From the NCBI GenBank assembly GCA_000004985.1, contig GG738845.1: DNA of 64,000 nucleotides; one strand, written 5' to 3'. Within the stretch, counting starts at the first letter, position 1. Every line of letters begins with the position of its first letter. Shown piece by piece: positions 37,929 through 62,900 of this stretch. The notes under the pieces were generated by a model, which saw only the letters and a list, made by a program, of their open reading frames with translations, ran no database searches and was not told where the DNA came from. The stretch is from Naegleria gruberi. Lineage: Eukaryota. A program made the translations under genes and the position numbers.

Positions 37929-38048
37929 TTTTTTTGTACGAATTTGTCTCAGACAATTTGTGAATCATCAAAATTGATGCTGGTAAGCGAATTACCCGTT
38001 GTGAAAACAAGGATGGATATCTTTTAAAAGAAGCTAACAAGACTTTTG

Positions 38049-38070
38049 TTGAACCAATCCTTTGGTTCAA
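38049..38070. other. Perfect 9-bp stem and 4-nt loop hairpin (TTGAACCAA tcct TTGGTTCAA) downstream of the K+ channel gene's stop codon
   Basis: Direct inverted repeat in the spacer between the K+ channel 3' end and the ELO gene start. Confidence 0.4.
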
Positions 38071-38100
38071 TTAAGGAAAATCAAATGAGCTGTTGGGTTG

Positions 38101-39845: not shown

Positions 39846-40050
39846 TTTTTTTAATGATCAAAATTAAAGCTTCTCTAAAACTCACAACAAATTAATGGTG
39901 GTTTTAGCTGTGAAAATCAGTAAGATATTTTGAAGGCAAGTACTTACTGTACCATCCAGCTCGAATTGAATCAAGATCATCTCTATTTAGCAATTCATTT
40001 AGAGTTGCAAAAGTGTTAAACATACATTTATTTACAATAATTTACAAAGT

Positions 40051-40509: not shown

Positions 40510-40537
40510 TTTTTTTATGATGATGTCAGCAATAAAT

Positions 40538-41839: not shown

Positions 41840-42825
41840 ATGCAATTCCAACTTGATGCAGAAGGTAAGTTTGTTGTTTGTCTTAAGAAACAAATTGTTC
41901 AAACATATCCAATTCGTAAAAAGCATTCAGAAAAGTTCACCCATTGGAGTTTTATAACAAATTTTTACCGGAAGGCGTTAGACCTGATGGTAGACCATTG
42001 AACATGATACGAGAGACTGTTGTTTCATCGGGATCTTTGGGAAATTGTGAAGGATCATCTCTTGTAAAGACTGGAAATACAAGTGTTGTTTGTGGAATTA
42101 AAGCGGAAGTAATGATACCAACAGAAGATGCACCAAAAAATGGAAAAGTTGTCATTTCATTTGATTTTCCTTCTATTTGTGCAGCCGATGTTACTGGAAA
42201 TTGGGAAGAAATTAATGAAAAAAAAAGTGTAATTCAACAGAGATTGGCAGGAATATTTTATAATTGCAATGTTATGGATCTTAGTCAATTGTGTATAGAA
42301 GAAGGTAAAGCTGTTTGGGTTTTATATGCAGATTTATATTGTTTGGAAAATGATGGGAATGTATTCGATGCAGCACTTATTGCTTTATTAACAGCACTGA
42401 AAAATGGTGAGTTATTTTCATGAATTTAAATAATAACTTTTATTGAAATATAGTATCACTTCCAACTTGTCAAATAACGAAGGATGATGAGGCAATTGTC
42501 ACTAATGAAAATTCAAACATTAAACTTCAATTAGACCATTATCCAATACCATTGTCATTTGGTAATCTTTCAGAGTAAGTTTATTACAAAAATTTTCATC
42601 CAATTCTCTTTAAGATTTACAATAGTAGATCCAACAAGTGAAGAAGAATCACTATTGGCTTGGAAATTAACAATTGTTTATAATGAAAGAAATGAGTTAT
42701 GTTCGTTATTTAAACCTGGTGGAAAGTCTATCAAACAGTCAACATTAAATTATTGTTTAGAGATGGCCAAAAAGAGAACAGGAAAAATCATTTCAATGAT
42801 TGAAAAATCTGTTTCTGTCCAATAA
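41840..42825 (+). CDS. Exosome RNase-PH-like subunit (Rrp43/Rrp46/Mtr3 class, member unresolved) in four exons. Introns are 41865-41935 (approximate acceptor), 42407-42453 (GTGAGT) and 42575-42614 (GTAAGT).
   Basis: RNase PH N-terminal signature GVRPDGRPLNMIRETVVSSGSLGNCEGSSLVKTGNTSVVCGIKAEV. The three downstream introns restore a continuous reading frame. Confidence 0.7.
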
Positions 42826-43042
42826 AAACATTGACAAAAGAACCAATGCATTCTTTAATTATTAAATCCATTAAAAAATAGAATATTTTGCTTGCTAAAA
42901 ATAATTTAAAAAAAACGTTAAAACAAATTAACTTCATAAGTTATTAACCTCTCTAACATAAAAAAGATCATCATCTTGAGGTTTTAATAGGTTTTAAAAT
43001 TTATTTTAATAGTGGCAGAATAAATATACTGTATATAAAGGA

Positions 43043-45007
43043 ATGCCGGAAATTTGGTGCAGCACTTGCAAAGCACACGTAAATCCAGAACAAACAACAG
43101 AAGGATTATATTGTGGAGAATGTGGAGAAGAATTAGGTAGTCATTTTGAAGAAACTGTAGAGTTTAACGAAAATCATACTATGGTTGGCAGATTTGTTTC
43201 GTCCGAGAGAGCAATGGCTAGTGCAGCTACAGCACTTGCTGGAGTGCCACAATTTTCCTATGATGAGAATGGTAATTTAATATTTACTTCTGCAGTTCCT
43301 CAGGCTGGGAATACTGAAAAGCCAATGACAGAAAGTAGACTTCAAACTATTGAAAAAGCAAAAAGAAGAATAAGTGTAATTGCACTTTTAATGAAAATAC
43401 CAAACCATTATGTTGACCGAGCGACAAATACTTACAAATTAGCTCTTTTGAAAGGATCTACAAAAGCAAGAAATCCTGATATTGTAGCAGCAGCTTGTTT
43501 ATATTTTGTTTTACGTCAAGACAAACAACCATACATGTTAATGGATTTTTCTGAATCTATGAAAACAGATGTATTTTTAATAGGTCATTGTTTTTTAGAT
43601 TTAATGACTGCTCTCAATTTTAAATTACCAGCAGTTGAACCTTTCTTTTATGTGAGACGTTTTGCAAATAGGTTATTATTGAACTCTGGAAAAGAAAATG
43701 CAAATCAAGAAGCAATTAATAGAGTAATCCAAACAACTTTGAAATTAATTGCCAGTATGAAAAGAAATTGGATTCAAACAGGAAGAAGACCTGCTGGTAT
43801 TTGTGCTGCAGCACTTTTAGTAGCAGCTAGAATACATGGATTTAAAAATATTTCAAAACAAGATGTTGTAAAAGTTGTAAAGATATGTACAGCTACTTTA
43901 ACAAAACGTTTAATGGAGTTTGATAAAACAGAAACAGCTCAACTTTCTCCTGAAGAGTTTGAAAGAAGAGAACAAGAAATTAATAATGGTAGTTTTCAGG
44001 GAACAATAGACGTTTCAGATCCTCCTGCATATTCTCGTTCACTTAAGGAAAAATCTAAACTTATGGAAAGATATGAACCTGAACAAAAGGATTTAGAAAG
44101 AGGAACAGATGTTAATGATCAAGATGTTGAAGAAGCAGAAAAACTTATTCAAGACAAGGAAATTGAAGAAATATCAACAGAACTAGAAAAAGGGGATCAA
44201 TTAGCAAGAGCGCAAAGATTACAAGAATCCCAATCAAAACCAATACCGGATACTACTTTACCTTCTTCATCTCTTCCTTCAGCTAGTCAAGATGTTAGAC
44301 AAACTCAAATCAAGAGTTCTGAATTTGAAGATGATGAATCTATTTCATATGAAGAAAGTAATAATCACTCAAAAATTTCCATAGAAAATCAAACAGAACA
44401 ACAAAATCAAATAGAAGAAGACGAGGAAGAAGAAATTGATACATTATCTGATTTTGAGGATGATTCCGAAATTGAAGAAATTGTTATTACTGAAGAATCA
44501 GAAATAGAAGGAAGAGAAAAACTTTGGGATGAATTGCATTTGGAATATCTACAAGCCATGGAAGAAAATAGAAAAGAAAGGGAAGAAAGAAAAAAGAGAG
44601 GTGGTGGAAGGAGAAAAAGAAATAATACGAATGTGGATGCATCTTCTTCAGTTTTTAATATGGGAGGATTAATTTATGGAGCTAGCAATTCAAATCAACC
44701 TGAAACACATGCAGTTTTTAGAAGTGCATCTGAGGCCTCTGCTAATTTACTAAGAGCTAAAATAGCAAGAAATTTGGTTTCTAAATCTCTTTTTGATGAA
44801 GATGAACTTTTAAGTGATACAATGACAATACCACAATCTAATGCTGATGTTGACAATAATTTATTAGGAAAACGAAAACCATTATCTATTCAAGAGAAGA
44901 ATAGATATGAATACAAGAATGATGAAGAGTATGAAGATGATTTTGTGGATGACTTTGAAGGTGATTATGAAAAACAGCCCAAGAAATTCAAGTTTAAAAA
45001 AAAATAA
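43043..45007 (+). CDS. BRF1: TFIIIB subunit BRF1, with an N-terminal zinc ribbon, TFIIB-like cyclin repeats and an acidic C-terminus
   Basis: Zinc ribbon CSTCKAHVNPEQTTEGLYCGECG, followed by cyclin-fold blocks and a Brf1-type C-terminal region. Confidence 0.8.
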   Translation: MPEIWCSTCKAHVNPEQTTEGLYCGECGEELGSHFEETVEFNENHTMVGRFVSSERAMASAATALAGVPQFSYDENGNLIFTSAVPQAGNTEKPMTESRLQTIEKAKRRISVIALLMKIPNHYVDRATNTYKLALLKGSTKARNPDIVAAACLYFVLRQDKQPYMLMDFSESMKTDVFLIGHCFLDLMTALNFKLPAVEPFFYVRRFANRLLLNSGKENANQEAINRVIQTTLKLIASMKRNWIQTGRRPAGICAAALLVAARIHGFKNISKQDVVKVVKICTATLTKRLMEFDKTETAQLSPEEFERREQEINNGSFQGTIDVSDPPAYSRSLKEKSKLMERYEPEQKDLERGTDVNDQDVEEAEKLIQDKEIEEISTELEKGDQLARAQRLQESQSKPIPDTTLPSSSLPSASQDVRQTQIKSSEFEDDESISYEESNNHSKISIENQTEQQNQIEEDEEEEIDTLSDFEDDSEIEEIVITEESEIEGREKLWDELHLEYLQAMEENRKEREERKKRGGGRRKRNNTNVDASSSVFNMGGLIYGASNSNQPETHAVFRSASEASANLLRAKIARNLVSKSLFDEDELLSDTMTIPQSNADVDNNLLGKRKPLSIQEKNRYEYKNDEEYEDDFVDDFEGDYEKQPKKFKFKKK

Positions 45008-45032
45008 AAAAAAAAATTATTTTATAAAAAAT

Positions 45033-48000
45033 ATGCCACCAAGGAAATTTGCTAAGAGAGGTAAAAATAAACCATCATCACCCACAGTTAGTGATGAGGA
45101 AATAGATCTTGGAGAAAATACAACAAGTAGTGAAAATAATATTTTAGAAAAGCCAGAAATTGGATCAACTTCCAATACCGAAGAACATCTACCATCCGAG
45201 CAATATTTACAAATAATACGTGAACATTTTATACAATCATGGAACAATAACAGTTCACCTTTTAAATGGGCTTATCAATTAAAACAAAAATGCAAAAACA
45301 ATCCAAATCTTGAAAATCACTTGATTGGTATGTTTTTTTGAAATTTTGACAAAATTACCCTTTCGACAGAATCTTTTATTGATATCACTCTTAGACGTGA
45401 TACAAATAGTAATATATTTTTTAATTACTTGAATCATTCTCTGATGACGGAGCTTTTATCATTGGATACTTTTACAAAACAACTCTTTGACATTCTTCAA
45501 GTTGACAATAATAATATTTGGAAAAAAACATCATCATGGTTTGAATTATTAAAAATCATAGAATACCACTTACCAATAGTTGTAGAAAAGATTGCAATTT
45601 CTTCATCTGTGAGGATTGGTGACAGTGATAAAAATCATAATGTGCAAATAATTGTACAACCACAATTGTTGGAAAATAACAAAAAAAGAAAGATTGATGG
45701 AGTTGTTGATTCGGATTTAAATAATAACAAAAAGAGAAAATTTATTGTTGATTCATCAGATTTTAATAATTTAAAATATATATCTAGGGTTGTAATCAAC
45801 TCTTTCATGATTAATTGCTTATATATTGCTAATTCATATGAAACATCAGGAAGTAATTCTCTAATTTGTCTAAATATTATCAAATCTATTCAAGTTCTTT
45901 ATAGAATTTTAACACAGCCAAATATTAAACTCTTTTTATTATTTTCAAAATATACAGAACAGGAGTTATGGACAGTATTTATGAATATTACACATTCTAA
46001 ATTAATACCAATTCTAGAAAAAATTAAACAAATATCATCAAACAAACAAACACATTTAGAAAAAGAATTTGTAAATTTATGGCAAGCACTAAATAGGTTT
46101 ATAATATTTATGCTATCTACTGAAAAAAATGGAGAATATCAAGCAATTCAATTTAAAGAATTGAATCATTCTAGACCTTCTAAATCATTGCAATCAACTT
46201 TAAATGAAAAAGCTTGTTTTACTACTTCTCTACTTGTTGAAGATGAAATATCAACCAAAAGTATTACACGTACAAATATTGATAACACATTTTCAAGATT
46301 TGATAATATCAGAATTTTAAAGGAAAGAAGTTTTTTAAACTTTTATTTTGACATTCTTTATAGTGGAATAGAAAAAGTACACGATCTTCAAGCACTTGAA
46401 ATAACAGATATGGCCCAAAGATTAATTGTAGACGACAAGGCTCATAGAATTATGGTAAGAAAATCTTTTCTAGTTTCAAAGCTCCCTCTTTTAATTAAGA
46501 AATGGTATGACAGTTTTGGAAATGAAAAACAGTTCTATGATCCATTTTTCAATTGTGCAAATATTAAGAATATTCATAGCAGTTATTCAGAAAAAGATAT
46601 AAGGTATCTTACTGATACTTCATTCAATAGTATTGAAAAAGCACTTTATATGACTTCTAAATATTGCGTAATTACAAATCATCAACATATTTTAAAGGAG
46701 ATAATCAATCATTGTGTATCACTCAAATTAATAGCACCAGAAAATATAAGAATGTTAATTAATGACAGTGTAATTGACAATGAAGAAAATGAGGATATAG
46801 AAATTCAAAAAAATTATTTTTCAAACTTTTTAGAGAAAAATCCTGTTGAATATGTAGTTAATTTGGTAATTTGTCCAAGATATCAAGCAGCTGTAATTAA
46901 AGCTGACTTTTTAGAAACAAGTGAACATTACTTTGGAAAAATGGACTGTTTGATAAGAAATCCATCAGTTTTGGATATTATACAATTACACGGGTTTATA
47001 CCTGATGTATTAGAACGAGTATTTATTGAAATGAGAAATATTTTTGATACCAAAGAGGATCTACAACATACAAAGTTTGCTTTGGCATTTACTCTATTGT
47101 ATATAATTGCTGAAAGATTTGAATTTAAAAAGGTTAAAGAAAATAGAGAAATATTTTACATGTTGATGGATAGACATTTTATTAATGAAAGCGCTTTGGT
47201 ACACTTAAAAGAATGGTTTCAAAACTGGTTTGAGGATCGTTTGGATAGATTTAGTGAAAGTATTGAAATTTCTAATATTTGCCAAGATATACTTAAAGAA
47301 TTGTTTTCAGTTTCTGCAAGAATAGCCCAAGCAGGTTTTGGCGGAGAAGTAGATATGGAAGGCATACAAAAGTTAAGAAGACAATACTCACCTTCTGTAA
47401 TTTTAAAAGCATCTACTTGTATGGCCAAGCTGTTTGTTGAATGGTATTTTTTAAAACCAGCAGATTTAGAATTTAAATTGGTTCCAATTCTTTCCTTTTT
47501 CCATGAACAGTTTGGATATCATGTAGAGGTTGGATTTTCAGCTGGATTACTTCCAGCATGTTTGCAAGTGTTTCCTAATCTTGAAAGTACTAGAGAAAAA
47601 ATTCCAGATCTAGTGGAATCCATATACAAAGCATTTTTAGCTAAAAATAGAGAAGTATTTGGATTTAATATTTCAAGTATAATGTTACATAATTTACTTG
47701 TTCAATGTGTTCATACCTGCACACAAAATATCAAATCTTTGGAAAGAAGAAAACCAGTTGTATTTAATTATCACTTACCTACTATTCAATCACTTCTTCA
47801 TGAATCTTATTTAATTACAGGTTCAAACATTGAATGGCAATTAGCAACTCAAGAAGATTCCCAAGAATTACATCAAGGAAAGGTCTTTCTATTACCTCCA
47901 TTATTAGGATTTGGAAATACAAACGTTAATCTTTCATCTTCTGCTTCTTCAGCAGTTGTACAAACATGGGTTGAACACGAGTTTGAAAATATATATAGAA

Positions 48001-48818
48001 GTTTGGCTGTTTCTAGTTTGACTTCTCTAACTACACAGGGTTTTATAATGAACTCTACAATGCGAGTATCGTTTAATGTACTTGTGAGAGGTTACAGAGC
48101 TATGGGAGCGCTTAATTTTCTTAAGTTTTTATTAGATCATATTTTTGAATGTTTACTTAAAGAGGATGAAGAACCTTTTGATGCCATAAGAGTAGCTGAG
48201 GCCGCAGCAATAATGTTCTTTATAAGTGCTGGTGAGGATGGTATTGATACATTGTTAAGAGAGGCAACAAACAATGGATTATTTGAATTTTTACTACAAC
48301 ACCATCATGAACAACATAAGAATTTTCTTGAGACTGGTGTTCAAATTTATAATAGACCACCAAATCCTAAAACACCCTCTGTGAAGGGTATTCAAGCCCT
48401 TTCTAATGTAGAATATTTATACATATTGAGCTCATTGTTTGGCTACTTTACTGTATTTGTACTTTCAATTAGAGAACGAAGATTATCAAATAATGAGGGA
48501 ATTCAAAGATTTATTTTCCATCTAATTGAGGAACACACACACAAGATTATTCATGAGGAAAAACATTTCATGACACATTTTACATTATCCTTTTTTGAAC
48601 AACTAAGCAAAATACCAAACCTCATTTTGCAAACACAACATGTATTGAAAAAGCAGCCAGAATGCTTCCCAAATTTTTGTCAAATAGTTACAAGAGCATC
48701 AATTGGAAATTCTTTTCTTGTTTCATTTGGTCGAAACTTGGGATTTTCGGATGGTTTAGTATTAACATTGCTAAAGCATTTAATTTCAACAAGTGTTTGC
48801 GACAATGTTGGAGAGTAA
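45033..48818 (+). CDS. Large hypothetical protein of about 1240 aa; two exons 45033-45327 and 45370-48818 with a 42-nt intron (45328-45369, GTATGT..CAG)
   Basis: Track ORFs 44907..45341 and 45429..48818 become in frame after splicing. Helical-repeat-like composition, no family assigned. Confidence 0.55.
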
Positions 48819-48855
48819 TTCCGCCAATTTTTTTGATAAAAATAAATTCAAAAAA

Positions 48856-51013
48856 AATGGCCAAAAACTTGATTTTATCATGTTGGGGATTGTCGGAAGA
48901 GTTGTTAAGTGGTGGCAGAGTATTAGACAGTATCCATACATTGGAATGTTTACTAACTAATGTTGGATTTGATCGTGATCCAATATGGGAAGTGGAAACA
49001 AGACTTAGAATTTCACAAATATATCTGAAGCATACTAGAAATTTTCAAAATTGTAAAGATCACTTATTGCGAGGTGTAGGTTTAATTAATATTATTATTT
49101 TTTTTTATAATAATAAATTTCAAGATTATGGTCTTGACATCATTCACGGATCAAGTGTCAACTGGTGTTGAAGCATATTACTTGGATCCGAAATTAAAAA
49201 TTTCATCAATCCAGATAGAACTCTACAAATGTTTAGGTTTAACTTATTCACAAATGTCTCAATTTCCAAGTGCTTGTGAAATCTATAACAAAGCAATAGA
49301 TTTTGTTGAATATATTTTAAATGTTATTGAATCCAAGAAAGAATTGGATGAAAATTTGAAACAACTCAAGTCATGTCTATCTTTGTGGCGCCATTATTTT
49401 CGTATATCTTTGATACACACTTTGGAAATGGATAATTTTTCTAATGATAGAACAATTGATATTGAAAGAATGATTCAAATAGGTGAAAGGGAAGAGTCGC
49501 AATGTAGTGAAAAAGTTAATAAGAGATTGATTGCCTATTATTTAATAAGAGTTTTTCAAGGGTTAAAACAAGATTATTGTTATGTTAATTGGAATATTGA
49601 TTATATAGGAAAAAAGGATTATATAATTAACTCATATCTTTCAAAATTACAAAAAGAGTTCTCTGTAGAAATGGGCACAGAAGAAGAAAAACAATTTTTG
49701 GAACAAAGAACAGATCCTGACTTGGTAAGTGTTTTAGTGATTTAAATATTCTATAGCATGACTAGATTCTCCTTTATATCAAATATTTACTTTTACTTGG
49801 ATTATATAAAATTTCATTAGGGAATCTTTCTGATTTGAAATTAATCCTAAAATCTATTCAAGATTGCACACAGGCACTTCAAAATGCTATGAAAACACCA
49901 CATTTATTTACCTATGAATGGCTTGAATTGAATCCTATAATAAGTATGGTGTGGCTTATTGCAAGCTATTTTTATAGAACATGTGGTCAACTTTCAAAAT
50001 CAGAAGGATATAACACAAAAGGAATTTCTATGGTTGAAAAATACCTAAAAGAGCTTGATAATATTGGCTTCATGCTTGATAAGAAGAAGAATGACAATGC
50101 CTTATATTCTATATTCATCAAATTTAACTTATTACAAGATATGATTTTGATTCATTTATCTAGATCAGAGTTTGTACTTGCCGCAAAAAATACTTTCAAG
50201 CTAATAGAGTTCTTATATCAATTCCCTGATCTATTTGAAACCTATAGACATAACATCCATTTATTAATTGGACTTTTATTATTTTTTACAAATAATCCCA
50301 AAACATATTCAGCTGCAAATGATCATTTTGAATTTGTTGTGAAGCATTCTACATCAAGAAATTTAGTTACTTGGGCTAATATTTATCAAATATTTTGGAA
50401 ATTAAATTGTGTAGGTGAAGAATATTCTACAAACCAATTATTTAGTGATTTGGATATCCTAAATAAGTCACTAGATAAGAATGGGCTAAAGCAGGCTGAA
50501 AATTTTAAAAGTTATATTTCATTTATCAAAGGTATTCTATGTTTGAGAAATTCAGCATTCGTAGAAGCGAAAAATCATTTTCAAAAATGTATTGATCTAA
50601 TGGAAAAATTGTCACTTGGTCAAAAGGGTGTACTAAGACAGTGCATTCTTGGAATCTTAAAGTGTTCATGGAAAAACCATGATTCTTCAAAACAAAAAAC
50701 ACTGGAAGGTGTTTCAAAAGTTGTGCAAGAGGCAACCAATGATCAAGATTTGTTGAACCAGATGCAGTGTTTAGCATTTTTATTAGAATTGTCTAACAAT
50801 TCCTGTGGGTCAGAAATGGATACAACAACTGATTTTGATATTGATAATATAAGATTGAGCCAACCCGAACCTATTCAAAACCAATTCTTCCAAGTTGAAC
50901 AAACACTCAAAGAAAATGTTAATATTCTACTTAATAGTGAGATTAATTCTCAATACGAAATATTAAAATCTTGGTTTCCTAATGGAAATGAGGGCTACGG
51001 CAAGAAACTTTAA
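48856..51013 (+). CDS. MAU2: MAU2/SCC4 cohesin-loader subunit (TPR-like) in at least three exons. First intron is 49076-49124 (GTAGGT); the second lies near 49731-49834 and its exact junction is unresolved.
   Basis: N-terminal block VETRLRISQIYLKHTRNFQNCKDHLLRG and central block PHLFTYEWLELNPIISMVWLIASYFYRTCGQLSKSEGYNTKGISMVEKYLK align with MAU2. Confidence 0.7.
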
Positions 51014-51063
51014 ATTGAATTTGATTAAACAACAAATTTTAAATAATATTATTTTTAAAAAAA

Positions 51064-54000
51064 ATGTATTCACCACCTGAGTCCCCTGCCTATTATAATA
51101 CTCCCTCGGATGATGAATACGAAGGAGGAACAAACATCATTGACAATAATTCATCCTTCTCATCACTGGATAGCTATGGATCAAATCTTTCTAATAATCA
51201 ATCTTTGGAATCACTATCGGATGAGAAAAAGAAAGCTTCATTAATTGATACGAAGATTGATTGGTTCGAATTTTTAGTCCATCCTAAAAAGCTTGATCAA
51301 CATGTAGGTTCAAGTTAAATCTTCTTATTATAATTCACCAAGTTAGAGGATCTTCAAAAAGACAACAGTTTACAACCATCCGCTCTTGATTTAGCTATTA
51401 CTTTTGTTGAACAATGTTTACCACCAACTGATTCTAAAACTCAACAAATTAATGACAGAACAAAAAGATATATATCCATAGTTACAAAAATAGCATTCAA
51501 ATCAAACTTTACTTTGGAGGAAATTGAAACTAAATTTCCAATTCCATTCCAAAAACATATTATTCTTGGAACTCTTTTAAGAAAAAGAAAACATTCAGGA
51601 GTGCAAGGTATTGTACATACATCAAGTCAAGACAAATTATCGGAAATTGACCTGTCAAGAATTGATACAATTAATGAAAATTGTTTGGAAGACTTGGCTA
51701 GTTCATATATCGAAATTATTTATCATCGCTGGGTTATAAGATCAATTTCTAAAAGGTTACCTCTATGGTTTATTAAATCACCTTCTCTAGAAGGAACAGA
51801 ATCTTACGATTTAGTACAATTAGGAGAAGAATCCCTTACAAGTTTGGAAAAATTAGTGGCTAGTGCAGAAAAAAATCCAAATATATTCGACAATTTAATT
51901 GACAAACCAGATTCTTTAGATAAGGTAGTATTTGGCATGTCTTTAATATTGGATATGGCAAATTATTACTTTTTCAGGGAAGATTTCCAAAACTCTTTCA
52001 AATATTTGAAATCTCTTCATGAAAAACTACTCAAATATTCAGACAAAAATTTTGAACCTTTAAAAGAGAGTTGCAACACGCTTATAATAGCATGCCAATC
52101 TGTAATTATGGCAAATAACCCTAGTGAAGGTTTACTTCTTCCTGAAAACAAAAAAACTCTCTTTTTCAGACAAATAGATGAGATTGTTAAGAGCTTAAAT
52201 AATCAATCAGAAGTTAAGGCTGAACAATCACAATTACTAATAGAATTACTCATTCAAGATATTATGGAAAATCAATTAAGTAGAGAATATCGTATAAGCT
52301 TATGTTACAAGTTGATTGAGAAGGAAAATCTTTTTAAAAAGATCTTAGCATGTAATATTATTCAAGATATGGTAAAGATTATACAAGGCCATACTATTCA
52401 ACAGGATATCGAAACAACTGGTTCATTTGATCAATCAAGTGTTAATGAAAAGTCTAAACATTCTATCATACCAGATGGTAATGAGGGAATTAATGTTTCA
52501 GTTCAAACCCATCTAGACCGATATGTCTTGAAACACAAGTTTGTTACTAGCCAACCTATAATACCAGTGTACATAATTTTATTCCTTAAAAGGCTAGAAT
52601 ACGAGTACAAGAAAAATGAGAGAAATAATGACTCTTTAGTATGGGACAGTAATATGAATTCTATTATTTCTGATTTTGTTTGTAGATTAGCTAAATATGT
52701 AAATCATCCAATTGTATATGCCACTTTACTGTCAGAGGGAGAAACTTATTTGAACTCAACCAACGAAAGTACACAAATATTTAAAAGTTTAATGTTAGAA
52801 AGTGTAGAAAAAACATATCACCTTAGTAACTTTGAAAATGTCTCCTCTTTAGAATATCAAGAGTATAACTATGGGTTACTTCCAGAAAATGTCCAACACA
52901 AACTGCTAACAGCCTGTTCTGAAAAAAAGACTGAAAACACCTCTTACTTTCAAAATTTGAAAACTTTGATTGTTAAAAAAAGAGTTTATGATTCTGCCCT
53001 CAAAGCTAATCATGTACTATTTTCTGATGATTTAGAGGAAGTTTTAAAACACGAGTCCACAAGCTTTGAGCCACTGAAGAGATTGAAAACAGAAACTAGC
53101 GATTACTTAGCATTGAGAGCTAGAAGTTTATTGTATCGCAATTGTTTCAATAGTCCAACAATAACTCATAGGGCAAAGACTTTTTTTGACGTTTCAATGA
53201 CAATTGCTAGATTTAAAGATTTTGAAACATCTAAACGTATTGCATTTGACAAACTGTTACTCTCTCTTTCTGAAAAACCACACAATTATTTAATAATAGA
53301 GGAATATGCTACTCCAAGAATAGAAAGTAAGCAAATTGAAAGACCCTCACCACATATTGACTGTATGGAAGATTTCTCTGCTCTGTGTGAATTATGCAAT
53401 TTACAAAAAAACCCAACTATAGATTCAATTAATATCAGTGAGAAATCAAAACCAGACTTATCTCATATTAATCTAGTATTCTTGGGAGAATTATTTAAAA
53501 ATCTAATTAATTTAGGTGATTGGGCTTTTATTAGGGATTTCTTTAAACAGATACAAACAGTATATGAGCAAAATACATCTGATGATGTTCATATTGTTTT
53601 TTGCAGATTTGCAATACTAGTTGAATCATTAGCTTATCATATGCATGCACCAAGAAATGGGGCTCCTAAAAAAGTGTTCAAAGATTTGAAAGATGATATT
53701 TATAAGTTTGTGAATAACTTGATTTATTTACCAGATCAATATCATTACGAATCTGATAGTCTTAATTTTGAGGACGAGAATAGACTAAGATGGGATGACT
53801 TTCATTTACTCGTTTCAACAAACAATCTCAAGTTCCTAATGGATCTATCAGTAATGTTATCGTTTGTTTTAGTTTCAGTAAGAATGACTGTTGTAGGAAA
53901 TAGATCCACATCTCCTCCAATGTTAAGAAATCCAACTCAACCAATAATGACAGGTCATTACAAGCATTTAGCAAAACTAATAATGCCTGAATATTTTTGT

Positions 54001-54699
54001 AGCTCTACAAAGAAAAATTGGTTACTTGGTAACGAAAAGTTTGTAGAAGATACCTTAATAATAATGCTTCAACATGTATTGGAGCGTGTAATTAATTTGC
54101 AAGAACAATCTTCAACCAAACCTATTAGTAGTTTCTACCTTTTTAAATGCTGTCTTGCTGACGTATATTTCGAAAAGGGTAAATTTAGAAGAGCTTTAGA
54201 ATTGTATTTGGAATGTGGAGAAATGAGTTTCCCTCATTTCTATAAACCATCCAATGAGGAAGTTGTTGAAAGAATGTTTAGATGCCTAGTTGAGTTGGGA
54301 GAATACACAGCAGCAGCTGTTCTACATCAATTTGTTCACAGCACTTACGATAATGAAATTGAAAGTCAATCCAGAACACACGTTATTTCTGACAATTTCA
54401 TTAACACTAACAACAGAATTGGTTATACAAAAGAAATAATTGATAATTTATACGAATCTAATGGTCTAAACGAGAGGTGGTTGTTGTATTTTTATGATCT
54501 ATCCTATTTGGAATTGGTAGTCCATGTAGCACACCAGAAAGGAGAGTTTAGTAAGGAAGATTTGATAATTCAACACATCCAAAGAAGTGAAATTAATTCC
54601 AATAACAAAACAGAGCATAGAAAAGAATATATCCAAGCAATGAAGGAAACATTTTTACGAAGATTATATCTTCATATAACCACCTTCTTGAAAAATTAA
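51064..54699 (+). CDS. Large hypothetical protein of about 1200 aa with a helical, TPR-like C-terminus; two exons 51064-51303 and 51343-54699 joined by a 39-nt GTAGGT intron
   Basis: Intron 51304-51342 joins HPKKLDQH to LEDLQKD in frame with track ORF 51514..54699. No family assigned. Confidence 0.55.
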
Positions 54700-54791
54700 A
54701 TAGTAACCAAGTGGTAGCATGGAATAAATCTTATTATTTAAATAATTGAAAAACAAGAAAAAAATATTTATTGTTGCTGTTCACGAAAAAA

Positions 54792-57700
54792 ATGAAAGTA
54801 AACTCGTACGCACCATCAACCGCGTTTAATTTCAACGCTCCCGTGGTTGGTGGCATTTCCACTACAACAGGTAATAGTGCCAATAATGTTTCGGGTGGAA
54901 ATCTTTTTAATGGAAGTATCTTACCATCATCAACAAAAGAACAATTAATGGAATCCAAAAAATTAGTCAATCAAAATTTAGAAAAGGATAGCAAGTTTGT
55001 TGATATTTACGAACTTTCACAAAATCAAAACGATTCCTATGATGAAGTAACGTATCTTGAATTTTTAATAATTTTTAATTTTTATAGTTGTTCGTAAAGA
55101 AACAATTTGTAGCCCTTCCTGATCCAATCTTTGAAGAATATCGTAGACTTGAATACAAATGTTTCATGGGTATTTTCCCTGAAATACATAGAGCTTGGAT
55201 TACTATTGACAACAAATTCTTCATATGGAGTTACTTGGATGGTAGTGATTTTAATGAATATGATGAGTTGGATCAAATAATTATTAGTGCCGGAATTGTG
55301 AAGCCAAAGCCTAATATTTTCAAAGATTATGTTAAATATTTACTAGTATTAGCAACACCAATAGAAATTGTTCTTGTAGCTCTTGCTTTTAACAATAATG
55401 ATGTTTCCTCGCCAATTAATGGTACAGAGACAGAAAAACAACAACATCCTTCATTTGATTCACAAACAGGAAGTATTTATTCTGAAATGGAGCTTTTCCC
55501 AACAAATTATATCATCCCATCAGACAATGTAAACATGTTAAAAATTGTTGGAACAAAAAATGGAAGAATTTTCATGTGTGGAAAAGATGGATGTTTATAT
55601 GAACTTACATATGAACCTGAGGAGGGCTGGTTTAAAAGCAAATGTAGAAAGCTGAACCATTCACAAAGTTTTGTTGGACTTTTAGTCCCTTCCTTCTTAA
55701 AGTTTACTCATGATGATCCTATTATTGATATTGTCGTAGATGACACAAGAAATATTCTTTATACTCTTTCAGATAATATGACCATTGAAGTTTATGATCT
55801 TGGAGAGAATGGGGATAGTATGAGAAAGGTTGTTAGTTATTCTAATTTACTTCAAGATATGATGAGAAAATTTCCAAATTATAATTGTAACTTGAATTCG
55901 CTCAAAATTATTTCAATTGCTCCAATATCTGAAAATGAATCAAAAGCTGTTCACTTGGTTGCCATTACTTCAAAGGGAGATAGAATATTTTTTACAACTG
56001 GCTACTCTCAAGATGGACTTTCCAATTCTGATAGACCTATTGGAATATCTCTTCTTCATATCAAATCAGTTTCATTTACTAGTAACACGATGAGTAATAA
56101 CAAATTTATTCCTGGTGGATTACACAAAATTCATGAATGCTTCTATAAGGATGGTGTTTGCATTTTAGCTGATGAGCTTAGTAACCAAGTTGATTCACTT
56201 GTTTGTTTGTCAATGGAGAGAAAGTATGGAGAATATGGATTTGGTTTAAACGAAAATGTAACCACCAAGCATTTAGATAATGGTATGACACACTCTATTG
56301 CTGAAATTCCTTTGTACTTGGATCCTGTTTTGGTTTCATCCCAAAATAGTCTAAATGAACTTTCATTCCAACACATCAAACCACCAAGAGAGTTCGTTTG
56401 TTTAAGTAATAATGGAATGCATTTGTTGGTAAAGCTTAGACCTGTAGACTTTTTACAACAAATTCTCCAACAAAGTCAATCCGATAGCTTGTTAAATAAT
56501 TTTTTTACAAAATATAGTGATGATGAAGCTTGTGCAATGTGTGTTATGCTAGCTTGCGCACCTCCAGCTTATAATAATATTACTGATCATGATCAACAAC
56601 CAACTCTCCATGACGAAATGCTCATTAAGAGAGCCGAACAAGCTTTCTTTAAATATGGTGGACTTCCTAGATTAGAATCACAAGAAAGAAACATTACTAA
56701 TAACACTATGGGTGGTCCTGTATCGGCAATAGATATCAAGTATAGTGCTCAACACAATGGTTTATATTTATATTTTACAAGATTAATGAGACCTCTATGG
56801 ATTTCTCCTGTATTTAATAGCAGAGTAAGAGACAATGAAACGTTAATTACATCATTACGTTACTCTCCAAAACAGCTTAAATATGTGCAACAATGTCTCT
56901 TTGGTATTTATAATTTTTTGAAACGTAATCCCCAACTGCATGAAATACAATCTAATGTCAAAAAGTCAATCCAAGAAAAGGTTGTAGATTTATATAACAC
57001 AAAGAAAGATGAAGAAGCCAAACGATTGGAACAAAGATCCATCCACAACTTGTATGTCTTACTCAAGAGATGCTACCAAGGATTGATTTTTTTATACTTT
57101 ATGGATAAGTGTAAACTTGCTACATTATTCTCTTCGTACTCACATACTCGAATTTCTCAAATAGCCAGAATGCCGTTCTGTGATTTATTCTTGACATCAG
57201 AAGGCGAAAAGATGATGAAAGAAATGGTAAGAATGGTTGTGATGAGAAGTAAAGAGGTTGATGCCAAACAAAAAATATGTGAAGAACTCAAGAGTTGTGA
57301 TGAGTTCTTTGATCCAAAGGATTTGGAGGAATATAAGGCATTGGATGCATTGGAAAAGGCTAAAATTAAGCACGATCAAGATTCTATGTTTGAATCACTT
57401 GAAATGTTTAAAAAGATTGCTGGTCATATTAATATTTTGGTTGTTTGTAAGGAATTCCAAAAACTTGGCTATTATACAGGTGCTGTTGAATTGGCATTAA
57501 CAAGCGCTGAACAAAGGGATCCAAGCAACTTGGCCTTAGAATGGATAAAGGCAGGTAAACCAGCTCTTGACATGGCTGGTCAGCAAGCTTTCGCTGCTAG
57601 AAATGAATGTTATACATGTGCTTTGAGCTCCTTAGATTTGGCAGATAATGAGGAATCACCAATAATTGGTAATCAAATTGACAAGGAAACCAAATTCTCT

Positions 57701-58786
57701 GATATTCTGGAAAAAATGTCCAAATCAAAGGACTCTCTTTTCCATGACACTCTTTATCAATGGTTAATCGAGCACAATCTCTCTGAAAAGTTATTGAGTT
57801 TGAATACTCCATTTATTGAAAATTTCTTAATTAAGCAAAACAAGCATTATGAGGAGCTTTCTTCTTACTATTTTAATAATAGAAGGTATGATAAGGCAGC
57901 AAAGGTACTTCTTAAACTTGCTGAAACTAAAAGTGATGATGTTAACCTCGATGGAAGAATTCAACACCTCACCCATGCAATTAATTATGCCAAAGCAGCC
58001 CAAACACAGGATGATTTACTAAACAGCCTTCAAGATAAATTAGATGTAGCACTCATCCAACGAAGAGTTCTTAAGCAAATACAAGAAATCAACCATGACT
58101 CGAGTGATATTATTGCTGATTTGGAAAGCTCTCTCTTTGATATTAATACTCTTTATAATAAGTATGCAGAGCCTTTTGATTTGTTAGAGTCTAGACTTTG
58201 TATTCTTCACTGTGCAAAATATAAGAATCACGAGCTAATTCAAGATTTATGGAATGAATTGATTGATATCTCTATTAAAGAGAATAATCTTGAATCTAAG
58301 ATTATAAGTTTAGGAAAGGAACTTACTGGTATTTACTTCCCTCTTGAATTTATTTGTGGCCAATTAGAAAAGAGAACATTGGATTCAAATTTTGAAGCTG
58401 GTTGGGTGGTTAAACTAATGAGAGATAAAGTTGGTGTGAAATACACCAACTTGTACAATGCATACCACAACTTGTATATTTTACTTAGTCCAACCAAGTC
58501 AAAAGTTGGAAAGGATGTAAGCATGTTCTATAATCAAGGTAGATTCGAAAATCTTCCAGACACAAAAGAAATGGTGCTCAGAATTTTAGAAAATATTGCA
58601 AAGATTCTTGGTGATTGGCTAGGCGAAATTAACACACCATACGATTTGCAATACGTCCAAACTTTCTCATTGGGAGATATCAAGAAAGATGTTAATGAAT
58701 ATATTTCAGCCTTGAATTCATTCTCAAAGAGTTCTAAAACTGATGAAATCAAAAAGAATTTAAAGAACATTGTCAATAGTATTTAA
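54792..58786 (+). CDS. NUP155: Nucleoporin Nup155 (Nup170/Nup157 family); short first exon 54792-55056, 31-nt intron 55057-55087 (GTAACG..TAG), then a single 1232-aa exon
   Basis: N-terminal beta-propeller signature FVALPDPIFEEYRRLEYKCFMGIFPEIHRAWITIDNKFFIWSY, followed by an alpha-solenoid of the expected length. Confidence 0.8.
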
Positions 58787-58835
58787 TAAATTAACGGAAA
58801 CTTTCCCGCCTTTTGAATATAATTAAACAAAAAAA

Positions 58836-59879
58836 ATGGAATTGTTCGACATTGAAGAAGCCATAATGAACCACCAAACCAAGAGTATTTCGGATCATGA
58901 TCAAGTAACAATAGAAAAACCATCAAACACAAGTAATCACACACAAGATGAACAAGCAGAAAATCACACACCACTAATTTTACATGATCCGCTTACCCAC
59001 TCCGTTGAGCATAACAACTCGGATACAATGAACACTTCATTAACGGATGAACCAATGGAACCTGTCACAAATAGTAACATTGAAAAGCAAACATCTTGTT
59101 CATCTCCTTCTATTCCCACATCAATAACTAATAATTCTATGTCTGCATCACCTTCAGAACAGCTAAACACTTCTTTTGAACAAATTAGACAACCGGAAGA
59201 GCAACAATTGCATCGTTTTGCAGAGGACAAAGAAGAACTAGGAAGATATCACTCCCTGAAGCAAGCCATTGATACCATGTTCAAAAATGTAATGAATATG
59301 CGGGGCACTAATGTTCAATCACATAGAAATGAGACCCCTTTTGATATTGCTGTATCTCAATTCCCCAAACAATTTCTTCAAAAATACGAAAGTGCAATGC
59401 TAGAAGTTTTCATAGCAATGCAAAAACGAGAATCAGAAGGTTTCCTGGAAGAATGTAGCCATTACTTGAAAGAAAGAGGGGTCAGACAAAAACTGAATGC
59501 TCTAGATCGAACACATAAATTGAGTGATTGTATAGTTTATATGAAAAGAGGCACAGTCCTTAGCCAAACGGAATCTAGTTACGTTGTTTTATCAAAAGAG
59601 TTGGAAGATGAAAATTTAATGAAGAAAAAAACCTGTCTTTCCCAATTACAAGATTACCTCCAAATCAAGAAGCAATTTCTACAAGAAATACAAAACCATA
59701 ACAATCACGTAAGGCATATGAATGAGGAACTAAGGAAAAAGAATGATTTCCTTATGGAATGTATTCAAACCAGCCTATTACCCGATCTGAAATCGAAACT
59801 TTCTCCAATACTCTCTTCATGCGAAAACATAGATGATTATTGCAATAGAGCACAATCACAACAATCCTCATACAACTAG
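58836..59879 (+). CDS. Hypothetical protein, 347 aa, with an S/T/N-rich N-terminus and a helical C-terminus
   Basis: ORF with an A-run before the ATG. No similarity recognised. Confidence 0.45.
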   Translation: MELFDIEEAIMNHQTKSISDHDQVTIEKPSNTSNHTQDEQAENHTPLILHDPLTHSVEHNNSDTMNTSLTDEPMEPVTNSNIEKQTSCSSPSIPTSITNNSMSASPSEQLNTSFEQIRQPEEQQLHRFAEDKEELGRYHSLKQAIDTMFKNVMNMRGTNVQSHRNETPFDIAVSQFPKQFLQKYESAMLEVFIAMQKRESEGFLEECSHYLKERGVRQKLNALDRTHKLSDCIVYMKRGTVLSQTESSYVVLSKELEDENLMKKKTCLSQLQDYLQIKKQFLQEIQNHNNHVRHMNEELRKKNDFLMECIQTSLLPDLKSKLSPILSSCENIDDYCNRAQSQQSSYN

Positions 59880-59903
59880 TTGGAGAAACTATATAGTGTC
59901 ACT

Positions 59904-62900
59904 TTATTGGAAATTTACGGATATCTCAGTATTGTTTTCCATAAATACAAACTCTGCAATGTAATAAATAGCATGAGGAGAAATTGTGTGATTTTTCCCA
60001 ATTCTTTCTTTAAAGTAAAATCCTTCGATGAACCAATCAAACACATTATCTACCATAAAGCCAAAATTGTCGTTCAAGTCGTACAACTTTTGTGGTTCAG
60101 GGAAATGAAAAAGTGCTTTTGGATTTTTGCATACAGTCCTTGCCTCCACTACCTTATCAAAAAGGGAATAGAATTTAATTCTTTCTGTCTCTGTAGTATC
60201 ACATTTTACATTAAATACAATCTTTCCTTGATTTTCATCCTCCATCATATCTGAGTCTTGTCTTATTATGTGAAATTGGTAATAGGTTATTGGAGCTTTA
60301 AATATATGGTCAACTGTCACATGTCGTTTCTGTTCATAGAATAGAATGCTTCCATGTTTGTTAATAAATAACTGCTTGGGTATTTGATCAGGTAATTGGA
60401 TCGGTATTTTTTCCATTGAAACAGAGATGGTTTTGTTCGTAGAGAATATTGGAAGACTAAGGCTCATACTTTTGTTAGATTTCTTTAAAATGTTTCCATA
60501 TGCGCGAGAAATGAGCTCAGAACTACTAGTAGTTCCTACATTTTTGAATTGAGTGTTCAACTGATTTACCCATTTTTTTCTTTTTTCGGCTTGTATTGGA
60601 TCAAATTTTTGGTTCTTTTCTAAGTTAACTCTAATTTTGTTGTTTTCTATTTGTATGTTTAGAGCAATCTCATTATAATATCTGTTCTCCTCGGTTTCGA
60701 ATATCTCATCTTTAGTTAGACGAGAAGTGTGCGTCTTAGTAGCTCTGAGTTTAATAGAAGGAGCTCTTGGTTTTTGTAGTGTTGGAGGGATATATACAGT
60801 TATATCAGAATCCATTCCACCTATTTCATTTGAAAATGTACCATCATCAATATTTTGAGGTTCTGTAGGTTGAATGGATCCTTGGATTGGTGGATTGGTG
60901 GTTGTAAGCACATGAAGATCTTCAAATACTATATTCATACTGGCATGATTATCTGTATCTATCTGTTCATGTGCTGAGTTTTGTACAACGTTAGAAGATG
61001 TTTCTTCAATAAGAATAGGTGCAACTTCAGTTTCTTTCTTACGTTTTGGAATTTTCACGCTTGCCAAATCTACTGTTTCATCTGTATGTTGTGATATGAT
61101 GGTTGGAATTTTGATAATACACGACAAATTTGAATTTTCATTTTCTATTGCTTTTTTCTTTTCCTCTTTCTTTTTTTCCTTTTTTTCCTTTTTTTCTTTC
61201 TTTTCTTTTTTCTCTTCTTTCTTTTTCTCCTTCTTTTCTTTCTTCTCTTTCTTCTCTTTTTTTTCTTTCTTTTCTTTCTTTTCTTTTTTCTCCTCTTTTC
61301 TATCTTCTCTTTTTGATTTATCTTCCTTCATTTTCTTATCATCCTTAACTTTATCTTCTCCTTTCTTTTTAATAGATGGCAGTGGAATGTCCATAGAAGG
61401 AGAAAAAATACCAATAGGACCCTCGGATGATGTGCTGGGTTGTATTGGTTGAGTACTTGGATATATTGAGGTACTACTTGGAGGTAGAGGTGGAGGAAGT
61501 ACCAATTGCATTGGTTGAACTGTTTGAGTACTTGGGTATGTTGATGGAGGAGATTGCACAGTTGAAGGAGTTGGGTTTCAGGAACCTCTCGCTGAAGTGT
61601 ATTATTCTCTAAATTATTTTCCAAAAAAACTGGAGAAGGAGGTTTGATTTCAGGTTTGGTTTTCTTTGCTATTTTTGGAATGTCATGAAAGGCTGTTGTC
61701 TGTATTAATACACTTGTAGATGATTTAACATCTGTAATTGGATTAGGGAATTTTTCAGACTCATTAATAGGAGTCTCTAATATACGAGTGGTGTTTAGCT
61801 CATTAACAGGCACAGGGGGGATACTGTCTTTTGGTGACTGTTTTCTGTTTGACTTTATCTCATTGTCTGAATCAGAAGATTCTGTTTCTTCATCCTCCGA
61901 GTTAATAATTTTTTTGGACAATGGTCTAGATTCTCTTGGTTCTTCCTTTTCAATAGTAGGTTGGGAAACTGTTGGGGGTGTAATCGAAACAGGAATTTCG
62001 TATGACATAGTTCCCGGAGATAGTTCAGTAATCTTCTTTGTGTGCAATAAACTTTCAACATCGGCCATAAATTTTATCATTGCTTTTGTTGCCTTTGTGG
62101 TTTTTTTTGTTGTTACTTTTTCCACTTCATGTTTTACACATTTAGTTATGTGCGATAAATCTGATATCAGTGCATCCACATTCCTATAGAAATGACTCTG
62201 TAGTCTACCAGATACAGTAGCAAATAGCATTGGATGGGGAGTATTTTGAAGAAATGGAAGGTTTGAGCATTCAGAATTTGTGAAATCTGTTAAAATTTGT
62301 GCTACTTTTGTTTCAAGTGTAGGATCTATTTTTGGTAGTACTTTTTTCGCTTCTTCTTCTACTTCTTTGATTTCCCAAACACTAATATCTTCCGTGTCAT
62401 TTGTATCCCATGAGATGTGCAAGGTTTCAAATAGGCAATGAGGTTCATTAGGTTTAGTTTTGATCTCTTGAATTAAACCAGTGTAGGGAATTGGTAGCTT
62501 TGTAGTGGCATCAATAAAATCCATAGTTATTGACATTTTATCTCTGAGTGATTTATAGTATTGTGCTGATTTCAAATAGTGTTCGTATGTGATAATGAAT
62601 GGCCTACAATCCGAATAGCATAAATCAAAATTAAGAGTATCACCAACCTTTACCGAGTAAGGCAAAGTACTGTTGAGAATTTCCTCTTTCATGATTTCTT
62701 TTACTGTGAGTGTTAGAGTAAAAAAATTAAATCTACTTGGTTTTAATCCATTTTGTGACTTTGATATTAAACTATCCAATTCAGTGATGAAAACATTCTT
62801 GTATTCGATTTTGGATATGATACACCTAGTAGAAGGGGGAAATTTAGATACATCCCTCTTAAATCCATTAGGTGTTTGTTTAGTTTGAAAATATTTTAGA

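Follow-up and report, generated by a model that had tools for sequence, protein, structure and literature searches.

Seven co-oriented, closely spaced genes of Naegleria gruberi as a stretch of compact, probably monocistronic genes

A run of seven plus-strand genes in Naegleria gruberi, as little as 25 bp apart, is best read as a normal gene-dense stretch of this genome in which every gene gives rise to a separate monocistronic mRNA and the expression signals are ultrashort and overlap in part; we place the probability of this reading at about 85%. Compact monocistronic organisation of this kind is already known biology. The run lies in a 64,000-nucleotide stretch of DNA, hereafter the window, which comes from the nuclear genome of N. 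gruberi; its Nup155 open reading frame (55088-58786) matches the NCBI entry "nucleoporin 155 [Naegleria gruberi]" from end to end with 100% identity. An initial annotation of this DNA had called the run operon-like, a label that is misleading, as the arrangement is the norm of a compact genome.

The array comprises genes for an RNase-PH exosome subunit, BRF1, an orphan protein, MAU2, INTS8, Nup155 and a second orphan:

g1, 41840..42825, plus strand: exosome RNase-PH-type subunit (Pfam RNase_PH, 1e-20; RNase_PH_C, 4e-12), with 4 exons in the present model (41840-41868, 41931-42406, 42454-42574 and 42615-42825), the boundary of the first intron being uncertain
g2, 43043..45007, plus strand: BRF1, a Pol III transcription factor of 654 aa in 1 exon, with TFIIB repeats and a BRF1 domain (Pfam TFIIB, 1e-26; BRF1, 1e-8)
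g3, 45033..48818, plus strand: orphan protein of 1247 aa in 2 exons (45033-45327, 45370-48818)
g4, 48857..51013, plus strand: MAU2/Scc4 cohesin-loader subunit, 688 aa in 3 exons
g5, 51064..54699, plus strand: Integrator subunit 8 (INTS8), 1198 aa in 2 exons (Pfam TPR_INTS8, 1.6e-20)
g6, 54792..58786, plus strand: Nup155, 1317 aa in the NCBI model, in 2 exons (Pfam Nucleoporin_N, Nucleoporin_C)
g7, 58836..59879, plus strand: hypothetical protein of 347 aa

The orientation and positions of these genes, as first annotated, were confirmed, and the protein originally described only as having 1200 aa is real and is now identified as INTS8 (1198 aa, TPR repeats). From stop to ATG, the spacers between g1 and g7 measure 217, 25, 38, 50, 92 and 49 bp; these values match those given earlier except for the third, which had been put at 37 bp. 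The end of g7 lies 24 bp from the stop of a convergent gene (59904-63259). Pfam searches with g3 and g7 returned no match, and homologues of g3 were seen in Naegleria only. The ATG of g3 is supported by the N-terminus MPPRK, which is common to the N. lovaniensis orthologue P0131. The g4 product, which is 58% and 38% identical to the orthologues P0127 and P0129, respectively, was assigned to MAU2/Scc4 because PF10345 (Cohesin_load) is found on the Willaertia orthologue and the alignment with the N. fowleri orthologue begins at residue 1. The start of g6 at 54792 agrees with the NCBI model by exon mapping. Outside the array, the models of genes A, H, K, Q and WX are approximate.

The short gaps could in principle be artefacts of these gene models, for example if BRF1 and g3 formed one gene or if true starts lay further downstream. 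Indeed, a naive exon-chaining gene finder fused neighbours, and the public N. gruberi model of g3 (NAEGRDRAFT_77696) is shorter, its 902 aa covering 72% of g3. However, every ORF is closed by an in-frame stop, orthologue N-termini or the NCBI model bear out the start codons assigned to g3, g4 and g6, and A-runs directly precede the ATGs of g1 and g3-g7 (in g3, five A and then a T). In N. lovaniensis, moreover, the orthologues of BRF1 and g3 are not linked to each other. We therefore regard an artefactual origin of the gaps as highly improbable.

The array is the local norm of a compact genome and is not more than expected by chance. Gene spans make up 94% of the window, which is denser than the N. 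gruberi genome average, and the array spacers do not differ from the remaining tandem spacers in the window (Mann-Whitney P=0.52). Across the window, median spacers are 63 bp for tandem (range 5-586), 37 bp for convergent (11-116) and 79 bp for divergent pairs (19-628), two of the divergent spacers measuring just 19 and 38 bp; tandem spacers are not significantly different from divergent (P=0.67) or convergent ones (P=0.19; Mann-Whitney in both cases). Strand-run statistics, based on 31 gene models in the window, gave 12 runs versus 16 expected (P=0.10), and a longest run of at least seven among ~31 genes is within chance (P=0.19). The 2010 genome paper is said to report ~15,700 genes for N. 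gruberi, and random orientation over that many genes would yield ~120 runs of this kind genome-wide. The further same-strand runs listed in the initial annotation, at 11210-16690, at 30153-36997 and, on the minus strand, at 37035-41566, do exist and contain four genes each; the first has four because its two XPB ORFs are one gene interrupted by an assembly gap. According to a 2026 preprint, same-strand clusters in Heterolobosea contain ~2 genes without a heavy tail, and the ratio of inter- to intra-cluster spacers is near 1. In related loci from N. fowleri, N. lovaniensis and Willaertia (141 kb annotated), spacers were longest between divergent genes (613 bp), shorter between tandem genes (225 bp) and shortest between convergent genes (90 bp), an order that fits independent units, with two promoters, one and none, respectively.

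A separate poly(A) signal, at the stop or close behind it, appears to serve each of g1-g6, as AATAAA or ATTAAA is found at -4 to +24 nt relative to the stop in all six:

42821..42826, plus strand: AATAAA over the g1 stop TAA (42823-42825), so that stop codon and poly(A) signal coincide ("dual use")
45003..45008, plus strand: AATAAA over the g2 stop (45005-45007)
48841..48846, plus strand: AATAAA in the g3-g4 spacer, 10 nt 5' of the g4 ATG
51024..51029, plus strand: ATTAAA in the 50-bp g4-g5 spacer
54695-54700, plus strand: ATTAAA over the g5 stop
54723..54728, plus strand: AATAAA in the 92-bp g5-g6 spacer
58785..58790, plus strand: AATAAA over the g6 stop (TAATAAA)

TAA stops lie inside AATAAA in 9 of 26 cases in the window, against a background of 4.2% (P=7e-7). 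Nanopore direct RNA sequencing of N. gruberi identified AAUAAA as the signal, with a median 3' UTR of 39 nt; ~11-13% of genes had dual-use stop codons, for which the median UTR was 22 nt (PMC11529991). Since the g3 AATAAA is only 10 nt before the g4 ATG, these published distances predict cleavage of the g3 transcript at or inside the start of g4.

Signals were also visible at the 5' ends. At least five A at positions -6 to -1 were found at 20 of 30 start codons in the window, those of g1 and g3-g7 among them, compared with 4.5% of all ATGs (P=2e-20). In addition, E2F-like CCCGCC elements are present 25-38 bp upstream of two array ATGs:

48819..48826, plus strand: TTCCGCCA, E2F-like element directly 3' of the g3 stop, 31-38 bp upstream of the g4 ATG
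58803..58811, plus strand: TTCCCGCCT, E2F-like element between g6 and g7 (49-bp spacer), 25-33 bp 5' of the g7 ATG

The motif TYCCGCCW occurs seven times in the window (1.19 expected), and five of these matches are in spacers, in gene orientation and 25-100 bp upstream of an ATG, including those of g4 and g7 (P=1.5e-5). E2F-like sites were also found upstream of the MAU2 ATG in N. fowleri, where the neighbour is divergent, and in Willaertia, where a different tandem neighbour is present and the site is 31 bp from the ATG. The strict motif was not enriched in spacers of the related-species loci (five matches, one intergenic). Judging from these positions, the CCCGCC element is a putative promoter-type signal. 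The TTCCCGCCT copy would fall at the predicted cleavage site of the Nup155 mRNA, if the published UTR lengths apply (PMC11529991).

The tightest junction of the array has no E2F-like element of this kind:

45008..45032, plus strand: the 25-bp g2-g3 spacer, AAAAAAAAATTATTTTATAAAAAAT, without any G and hence without AG

No recognisable promoter element was found in this spacer, so the g3 promoter would lie inside the BRF1 coding sequence, or g3 would be reached by read-through. Long-read studies of some green algae and fungi have reported bicistronic read-through mRNAs. Here, the tightest pairs only (g2-g3, g3-g4 and, elsewhere in the window, N-M, with spacers of 25, 38 and 5 bp, respectively) might be partly expressed as such mRNAs without a spliced leader, with translation of the downstream ORF depending either on reinitiation or on a minor transcript of its own. 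If 3' UTRs measure 22-39 nt, a 3' and a 5' UTR cannot be kept apart in 5-38 bp, the g2-g3 spacer has no visible promoter motif, and the g3 AATAAA would direct cleavage inside g4. Against this, g4 has its own E2F-like element, such elements recur upstream of its orthologues in other species, and efficient cleavage is to be expected from the poly(A) hexamers on the stops of g2 and gene N. In eukaryotic translation, reinitiation is also unlikely after ORFs as long as the upstream ones here (654-1247 codons). Overall, we consider read-through at these pairs unlikely.

Gene order in related species was analyzed around three anchors, Nup155, MAU2 and g3, and the adjacencies around them are not kept. 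The neighbourhoods of their orthologues in N. fowleri, N. lovaniensis, Willaertia and two environmental contigs, where sampled, contained no other array gene, and no other window gene was detected within 10 kb of these orthologues in related genomes, with the sole exception of the gene C orthologue, which adjoins N. fowleri MAU2.

The initial annotation had proposed polycistronic transcription with trans-splicing as one explanation for the array. A single promoter upstream of g1 would then produce a long pre-mRNA, cut by coupled polyadenylation and spliced-leader trans-splicing, as happens in kinetoplastids, diplonemids, euglenids or nematode operons. In favour of such a unit, seven genes are co-oriented and all spacers but the first measure 25-92 bp, and Heterolobosea are related to Euglenozoa, which use this system. 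The proposal did not find support. Four of the six spacers (g2-g3, g3-g4, g4-g5 and g6-g7; 25, 38, 50 and 49 bp) contain no AG, so no 3' splice site is possible there between the upstream stop and the downstream ATG. The run length is within chance, the divergent and convergent spacers are no longer than the tandem ones, promoter-like motifs precede g4 and g7, and no adjacency around the three anchors is kept in three related genomes. The ~2 genes per same-strand cluster reported for Heterolobosea in the 2026 preprint also argue against long units. Descriptions of spliced-leader trans-splicing assign it to Euglenozoa and not to Heterolobosea. An Rfam search found no spliced-leader RNA in the window, a weak result, as it covers one window only. 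To our knowledge, spliced leaders have never been reported for Naegleria. Taken together, a spliced-leader polycistron is extremely improbable. It is also very unlikely that the array, or at least the g2-g3, g3-g4 and N-M junctions, is co-transcribed as a multi-gene RNA resolved by cleavage and polyadenylation alone, without a spliced leader.

We thus favour compact monocistronic genes, with seven functionally unrelated housekeeping genes probably co-oriented by chance. The poly(A) signal on or just past each stop would give a 3' UTR of ~20-40 nt, as shown for the species and expected for this locus, and the short A-run, standing alone before the ATG, suggests a very short 5' leader. Candidate core promoter elements, observed within ~25-40 bp of the ATG, would extend into the preceding gene, over its 3' UTR or its final codons. 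A spacer of 25-50 bp is too small for a 22-39-nt 3' UTR followed by a core promoter and a 5' UTR, so that signals or transcripts would have to overlap. Where the array is tightest (25 and 38 bp), adjacent transcripts or signals would have to touch or share between a few and a few tens of nucleotides; with the published UTR lengths (PMC11529991), the geometry implies signal overlap there and, outside the array, at junctions of 5, 11 and 19 bp. The earlier view that such spacers are too short for an independent terminator and promoter is correct in that these do not fit side by side, but the genes nonetheless have visible start and end signals of their own. The other explanation offered with it, overlapping monocistronic transcripts, is better supported, by the individual poly(A) hexamers, the A-rich starts and, in two genes, the promoter-type motif. 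Nuclear run-on experiments in Naegleria have shown transcriptional induction that is gene-specific (Lee and Walsh 1988, cited in PMC12183034).

The window mainly shows the degree of promoter and terminator compression that can be reached in a free-living eukaryote: a stop codon that is also a poly(A) signal, a promoter-type element in the 3' UTR of a neighbour, and divergent ATGs 19 bp apart. It also calls for caution, as co-orientation and short spacers are no evidence for operons. Multi-gene transcripts here would have placed the origin of euglenozoan polycistronic transcription deeper in Discoba, but the sequence evidence argues against them; co-transcription resolved by cleavage alone, if it occurred, would make this heterolobosean an intermediate stage toward the polycistronic expression of Euglenozoa.

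The closest known system is N. gruberi itself, for which ultrashort 3' UTRs and dual-use stop codon/AAUAAA signals have been described genome-wide (PMC11529991). The window agrees with this in its AATAAA hexamers on or near stops and in spacers that fit 3' UTRs of 22-39 nt. Nothing essential is different in the window, where dual-use stops are commoner (9/26) than the published 11-13% (PMC11529991). Giardia lamblia and Entamoeba histolytica also have very short UTRs, tiny spacers in all orientations, A/T-rich sequence directly before the ATG and stop codons that lie within the poly(A) signal. Such dual-use stops are documented for Giardia as for N. gruberi, but the Giardia poly(A) hexamer is WGURAA instead of AAUAAA (PMC11529991). 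As a further difference, Naegleria genes have spliceosomal introns, and whereas the A/T-rich sequence of Giardia and Entamoeba is an initiator, the A-run of Naegleria is a candidate initiator only. In microsporidia (Encephalitozoon) and nucleomorphs, as here, spacers are too short for separate termination and initiation signals, which implies overlap with neighbours. Those genomes, of parasites or endosymbionts, have undergone extreme reduction, and transcripts covering several genes are frequent in them. In contrast, N. gruberi is free-living, with a 41-Mb genome and defined poly(A) sites near each stop (PMC11529991), and overlap at this locus is predicted from spacer lengths. The units of kinetoplastids and diplonemids and the operons of nematodes and Oikopleura likewise consist of co-oriented, functionally unrelated housekeeping genes with short spacers; the present array differs from them in its four of six AG-less spacers, its chance-length cluster, its internal promoter-type motifs, strand-switch regions that are not longer than tandem spacers, and the unconserved adjacencies tested; nor are Heterolobosea known to have a spliced leader. 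Finally, Saccharomyces cerevisiae resembles Naegleria, as judged from the Heterolobosea preprint and the related loci, in its random orientation, its ~2 genes per same-strand run and its spacers decreasing from divergent to tandem to convergent. The spacers in the window are several-fold shorter (medians 37-79 bp) than those of yeast, and promoter and terminator signals are therefore forced to overlap.

The seven plus-strand genes with short gaps described in the initial annotation are real, and the biology behind the array is ordinary and already described for N. gruberi. The spacers, measured from stop codon to ATG, are 217, 25, 38, 50, 92, and 49 bp, essentially as first noted. The genes are as follows.

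41840-42825, plus strand: g1, RNase-PH exosome subunit, four exons
43043-45007, plus strand: g2, BRF1
45033-48818, plus strand: g3, 1247 aa, homologs found only in Naegleria
48857-51013, plus strand: g4, MAU2/Scc4
51064-54699, plus strand: g5, Integrator subunit 8
54792-58786, plus strand: g6, Nup155
58836-59879, plus strand: g7, 347 aa, without a domain

The 64-kb window has a G+C content of 28-35%, is packed almost end to end with ORFs on both strands, and carries genes with short GT-AG introns. Gene models were assembled from ORFs, an exon-chaining script, Pfam matches, and orthologs. They were curated by hand, because the home-made exon-chaining finder joined BRF1 to g3 and split Nup155; its first version was discarded for fusing neighboring genes, and a second, based on optimal interval scheduling, was rejected with both faults still present. 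Three assembly gaps (N runs) lie at 2916-2965, 14242-14291, and 34567-34894. The second of these interrupts the XPB/ERCC3 helicase (13304-15581), which is therefore one gene and not two, its two ORFs matching Helicase_C_3 and ERCC3_RAD25_C with ResIII.

The start codons of g3, g4, and g6 are independently supported by sequence comparison. The g6 start codon agrees with that of the NCBI model. Over the ORF at 55088-58786, identity to NCBI 'nucleoporin 155 [Naegleria gruberi]', which lies on a 1.56-Mb contig, is 100%, compared with 64% for N. fowleri and 55% for Willaertia magna as the runners-up; the window is accordingly nuclear DNA of N. gruberi, a free-living heterolobosean amoeboflagellate. 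For g4, the alignment to the N. fowleri ortholog begins at residue 1, and Cohesin_load is present in the Willaertia ortholog. The N-terminus of g3, MPPRK, is the same in the N. lovaniensis ortholog, which also backs the 1247-aa form. For g3, the publicly available N. gruberi model NAEGRDRAFT_77696 has 902 aa, spanning just 72% of this protein, and is therefore probably truncated. Searches against solved structures gave no identification for g3 or g7; a MED24 lead for g3 (E = 0.96) was not reproduced with a three-sequence profile.

We then asked whether such a run is unusual. This is not the case: the seven-gene run is not beyond chance. For the approximately 31 genes of the window (strand string ---++++-+-+--+++++----+++++++-+), random orientation gives a longest same-strand run of at least 7 with P = 0.19 and 12 or fewer strand runs with P = 0.10. 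Within the window, the array spacers are no different from the remaining tandem ones (P = 0.52), nor do tandem spacers differ from divergent (P = 0.67) or convergent ones (P = 0.19). Extreme spacers occur in all orientation classes, with convergent stops 11 bp (16691-16701, genes H and I) and 24 bp apart (59880-59903, g7 and the gene at 59904-63259), divergent ATGs 19 and 38 bp apart, and a tandem minus-strand pair separated by 5 bp. With the run length within chance and strand-switch spacers equally short, the label "operon-like" is not justified. A 2026 Discoba preprint reports about two genes per same-strand cluster in Heterolobosea, without a heavy tail, and inter-cluster spacers equal to intra-cluster ones for Heterolobosea as a group, in contrast to Euglenozoa.

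Gene neighborhoods were compared up to 10 kb on either side of orthologs of three anchor genes, using tblastn with all window proteins. These were Nup155 (N. fowleri, N. lovaniensis, Willaertia magna, and two environmental Naegleria-like contigs, taken as protein-cluster members), MAU2 (N. fowleri and Willaertia), and g3 (N. lovaniensis and one contig of a Naegleria-like ENA assembly). Apart from the anchors, the window proteins had no tblastn match in these loci, with one exception: the ortholog of gene C (8260-10581) is the divergent neighbor of N. fowleri MAU2. Judged from these sequences, none of the adjacencies around the three anchors is conserved; g1-g2 lies outside anchor coverage. All identifiable array genes (exosome, BRF1, MAU2, INTS8, and Nup155, 41840-58786) act in the nucleus on RNA or chromatin, and a second Pol III component, Rpc25, lies at 12541-13229, 30 kb from the array. 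As the tested adjacencies are not conserved, this grouping is probably a coincidence.

In the annotated related-species loci, median spacers are 613 bp (divergent), 225 bp (tandem), and 90 bp (convergent), the order expected of independent transcription units, with two promoters, one, and none, respectively. The N. gruberi window has the same order, compressed to 79, 63, and 37 bp. In N. fowleri and N. lovaniensis, TCCCGCCT is conserved (L004 6891 and L005 7125 in the respective loci, minus strand) within the minus-strand genes at the same position, 34-57 bp from their annotated 5' ends, which suggests that their start codons are annotated too far upstream.

Trans-splicing was the second explanation initially offered, as a means of resolving a polycistronic transcript. 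The spacers of 25, 38, 50, and 49 bp contain no AG, and that of 25 bp contains no G either; a 3' splice site therefore cannot fall between the stop of one gene and the ATG of the next in four of the six spacers. With a run length within chance and adjacencies that are not conserved, this explanation is unsupported. Scans of the window found no known Rfam family and no tRNA, and our literature search on Naegleria 5' UTRs, start sites, spliced leaders, and bicistronic transcripts returned no direct statement. To our knowledge, spliced-leader trans-splicing has never been reported for Naegleria. In the literature, its combination with polycistronic transcription is a trait of Euglenozoa. Gene-specific transcriptional induction of Naegleria flagellar genes was observed by nuclear run-on (Lee and Walsh 1988, as cited in PMC12183034).

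The 3' ends are closely packed. The stop codon lies within AATAAA in g1 and g2 and is overlapped by AATAAA in g6 (TAATAAA) and by ATTAAA in g5, where an AATAAA follows 24 nt later; in g3, AATAAA comes 23 nt past the stop, and in g4, ATTAAA comes 11 nt past it. Of the 26 TAA stops in the window, 9 fall within AATAAA, as against 4.2% of TAA trinucleotides overall (P = 7e-7). According to nanopore direct RNA sequencing, N. gruberi uses AAUAAA as its poly(A) signal, flanked by UGUA upstream and U-rich sequence downstream; its 3' UTRs have a median of 39 nt, and about 11-13% of its stops are 'dual-use' ones that overlap AAUAAA, with a median 3' UTR of 22 nt (PMC11529991). Past the end of g7, AATAAA is first encountered 84 nt inside the convergent gene (59904-63259), so these 3' ends must overlap in antisense.

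Starts are equally compact. At least five A residues occupy positions -6 to -1 at 20/30 window start codons versus 4.5% of all ATGs (P = 2e-20), including g1 and g3-g7. The G+C-rich, E2F-site-like motif TYCCGCCW occurs 7 times in the window (1.19 expected), and five of the matches are intergenic, point the same way as the gene that follows, and sit 25-100 bp before its ATG (P = 1.5e-5):

8211-8219, ahead of a 1733-aa orphan
11106-11114, ahead of an inositol-phosphatase-like gene
29025-29032, ahead of a 932-aa orphan
48819-48826, immediately past the g3 stop, 31-38 bp ahead of the MAU2 ATG
58803-58811, 25-33 bp ahead of the g7 ATG

A further E2F-like element, GCCGCCAAT, lies near 23440. Upstream of MAU2, N. 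fowleri has the E2F-like sites TTGCCCGCCA and GCGCCAA and Willaertia has TTTCCCGCC, despite different upstream neighbors (a divergent gene and an unrelated tandem gene, respectively), which points to a putative MAU2-specific promoter element in the 38-bp g3-g4 spacer. Since strict TYCCGCCW is not enriched in the spacers of the related-species loci, the evidence is suggestive of a local putative promoter element and not of a general rule; the genes carrying it may be a co-regulated set, perhaps cell-cycle linked.

Taken together, each array gene would be its own transcription unit. Cleavage about 20-40 nt past the stop, shown for the species, would also operate here, and initiation would take place a few to a few tens of nt ahead of the ATG, at or close to the A-run, under the direction of elements no more than about 40 bp away. 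The BRF1 mRNA is predicted to end about 3 nt ahead of the g3 ATG, so that the g3 promoter would have to sit in the BRF1 coding sequence; g3 cleavage is predicted at or within the first codons of MAU2, and cleavage of the Nup155 RNA is predicted to fall on the CCCGCC element of g7. This geometry would force overlaps at these junctions. The other initial proposal, overlapping monocistronic transcripts, is thus partly supported: the overlaps follow from the predicted geometry, and we infer monocistronic processing at the locus. Bicistronic read-through, in which one RNA would span the tightest junctions, seems improbable.

Similar compactness is seen elsewhere in the window. In the minus-strand tandem pair N and M (26143-26153), the TAA stop of gene N (932 aa; 26153-26151) lies within AATAAA and the ATG of gene M (LYR family) is at 26145; unless the two transcripts overlap, M must be expressed from a bicistronic RNA. 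Between a PPR-repeat gene (16702-19056, minus strand) and a methyltransferase gene (19076-20464, plus strand), the complete spacer at 19057-19075 is TTTTTTTTAATTTAAAAAA, the A-run of each gene being the T-run of the other, and both promoters must therefore sit in coding sequence. DRC4/GAS8 (NYD-SP28 domains) and a CCDC24-family gene (23465-25498 and 30153-31220), both likely flagellar, have housekeeping genes around them, at spacers of 59-586 bp. As flagellar genes of Naegleria are induced on differentiation, these two would be suitable test cases for independent regulation of close neighbors.

Of the features that define polycistronic units in kinetoplastids or nematodes, those testable here are cluster length, acceptor sites, spacer asymmetry, and conservation; the array departs from such units in all four. 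Its likeness to the overlapping transcripts of microsporidia and nucleomorphs is looser than that to Giardia and Entamoeba, with their ultrashort UTRs and dual-use stops, and it matches the published organization of N. gruberi itself.
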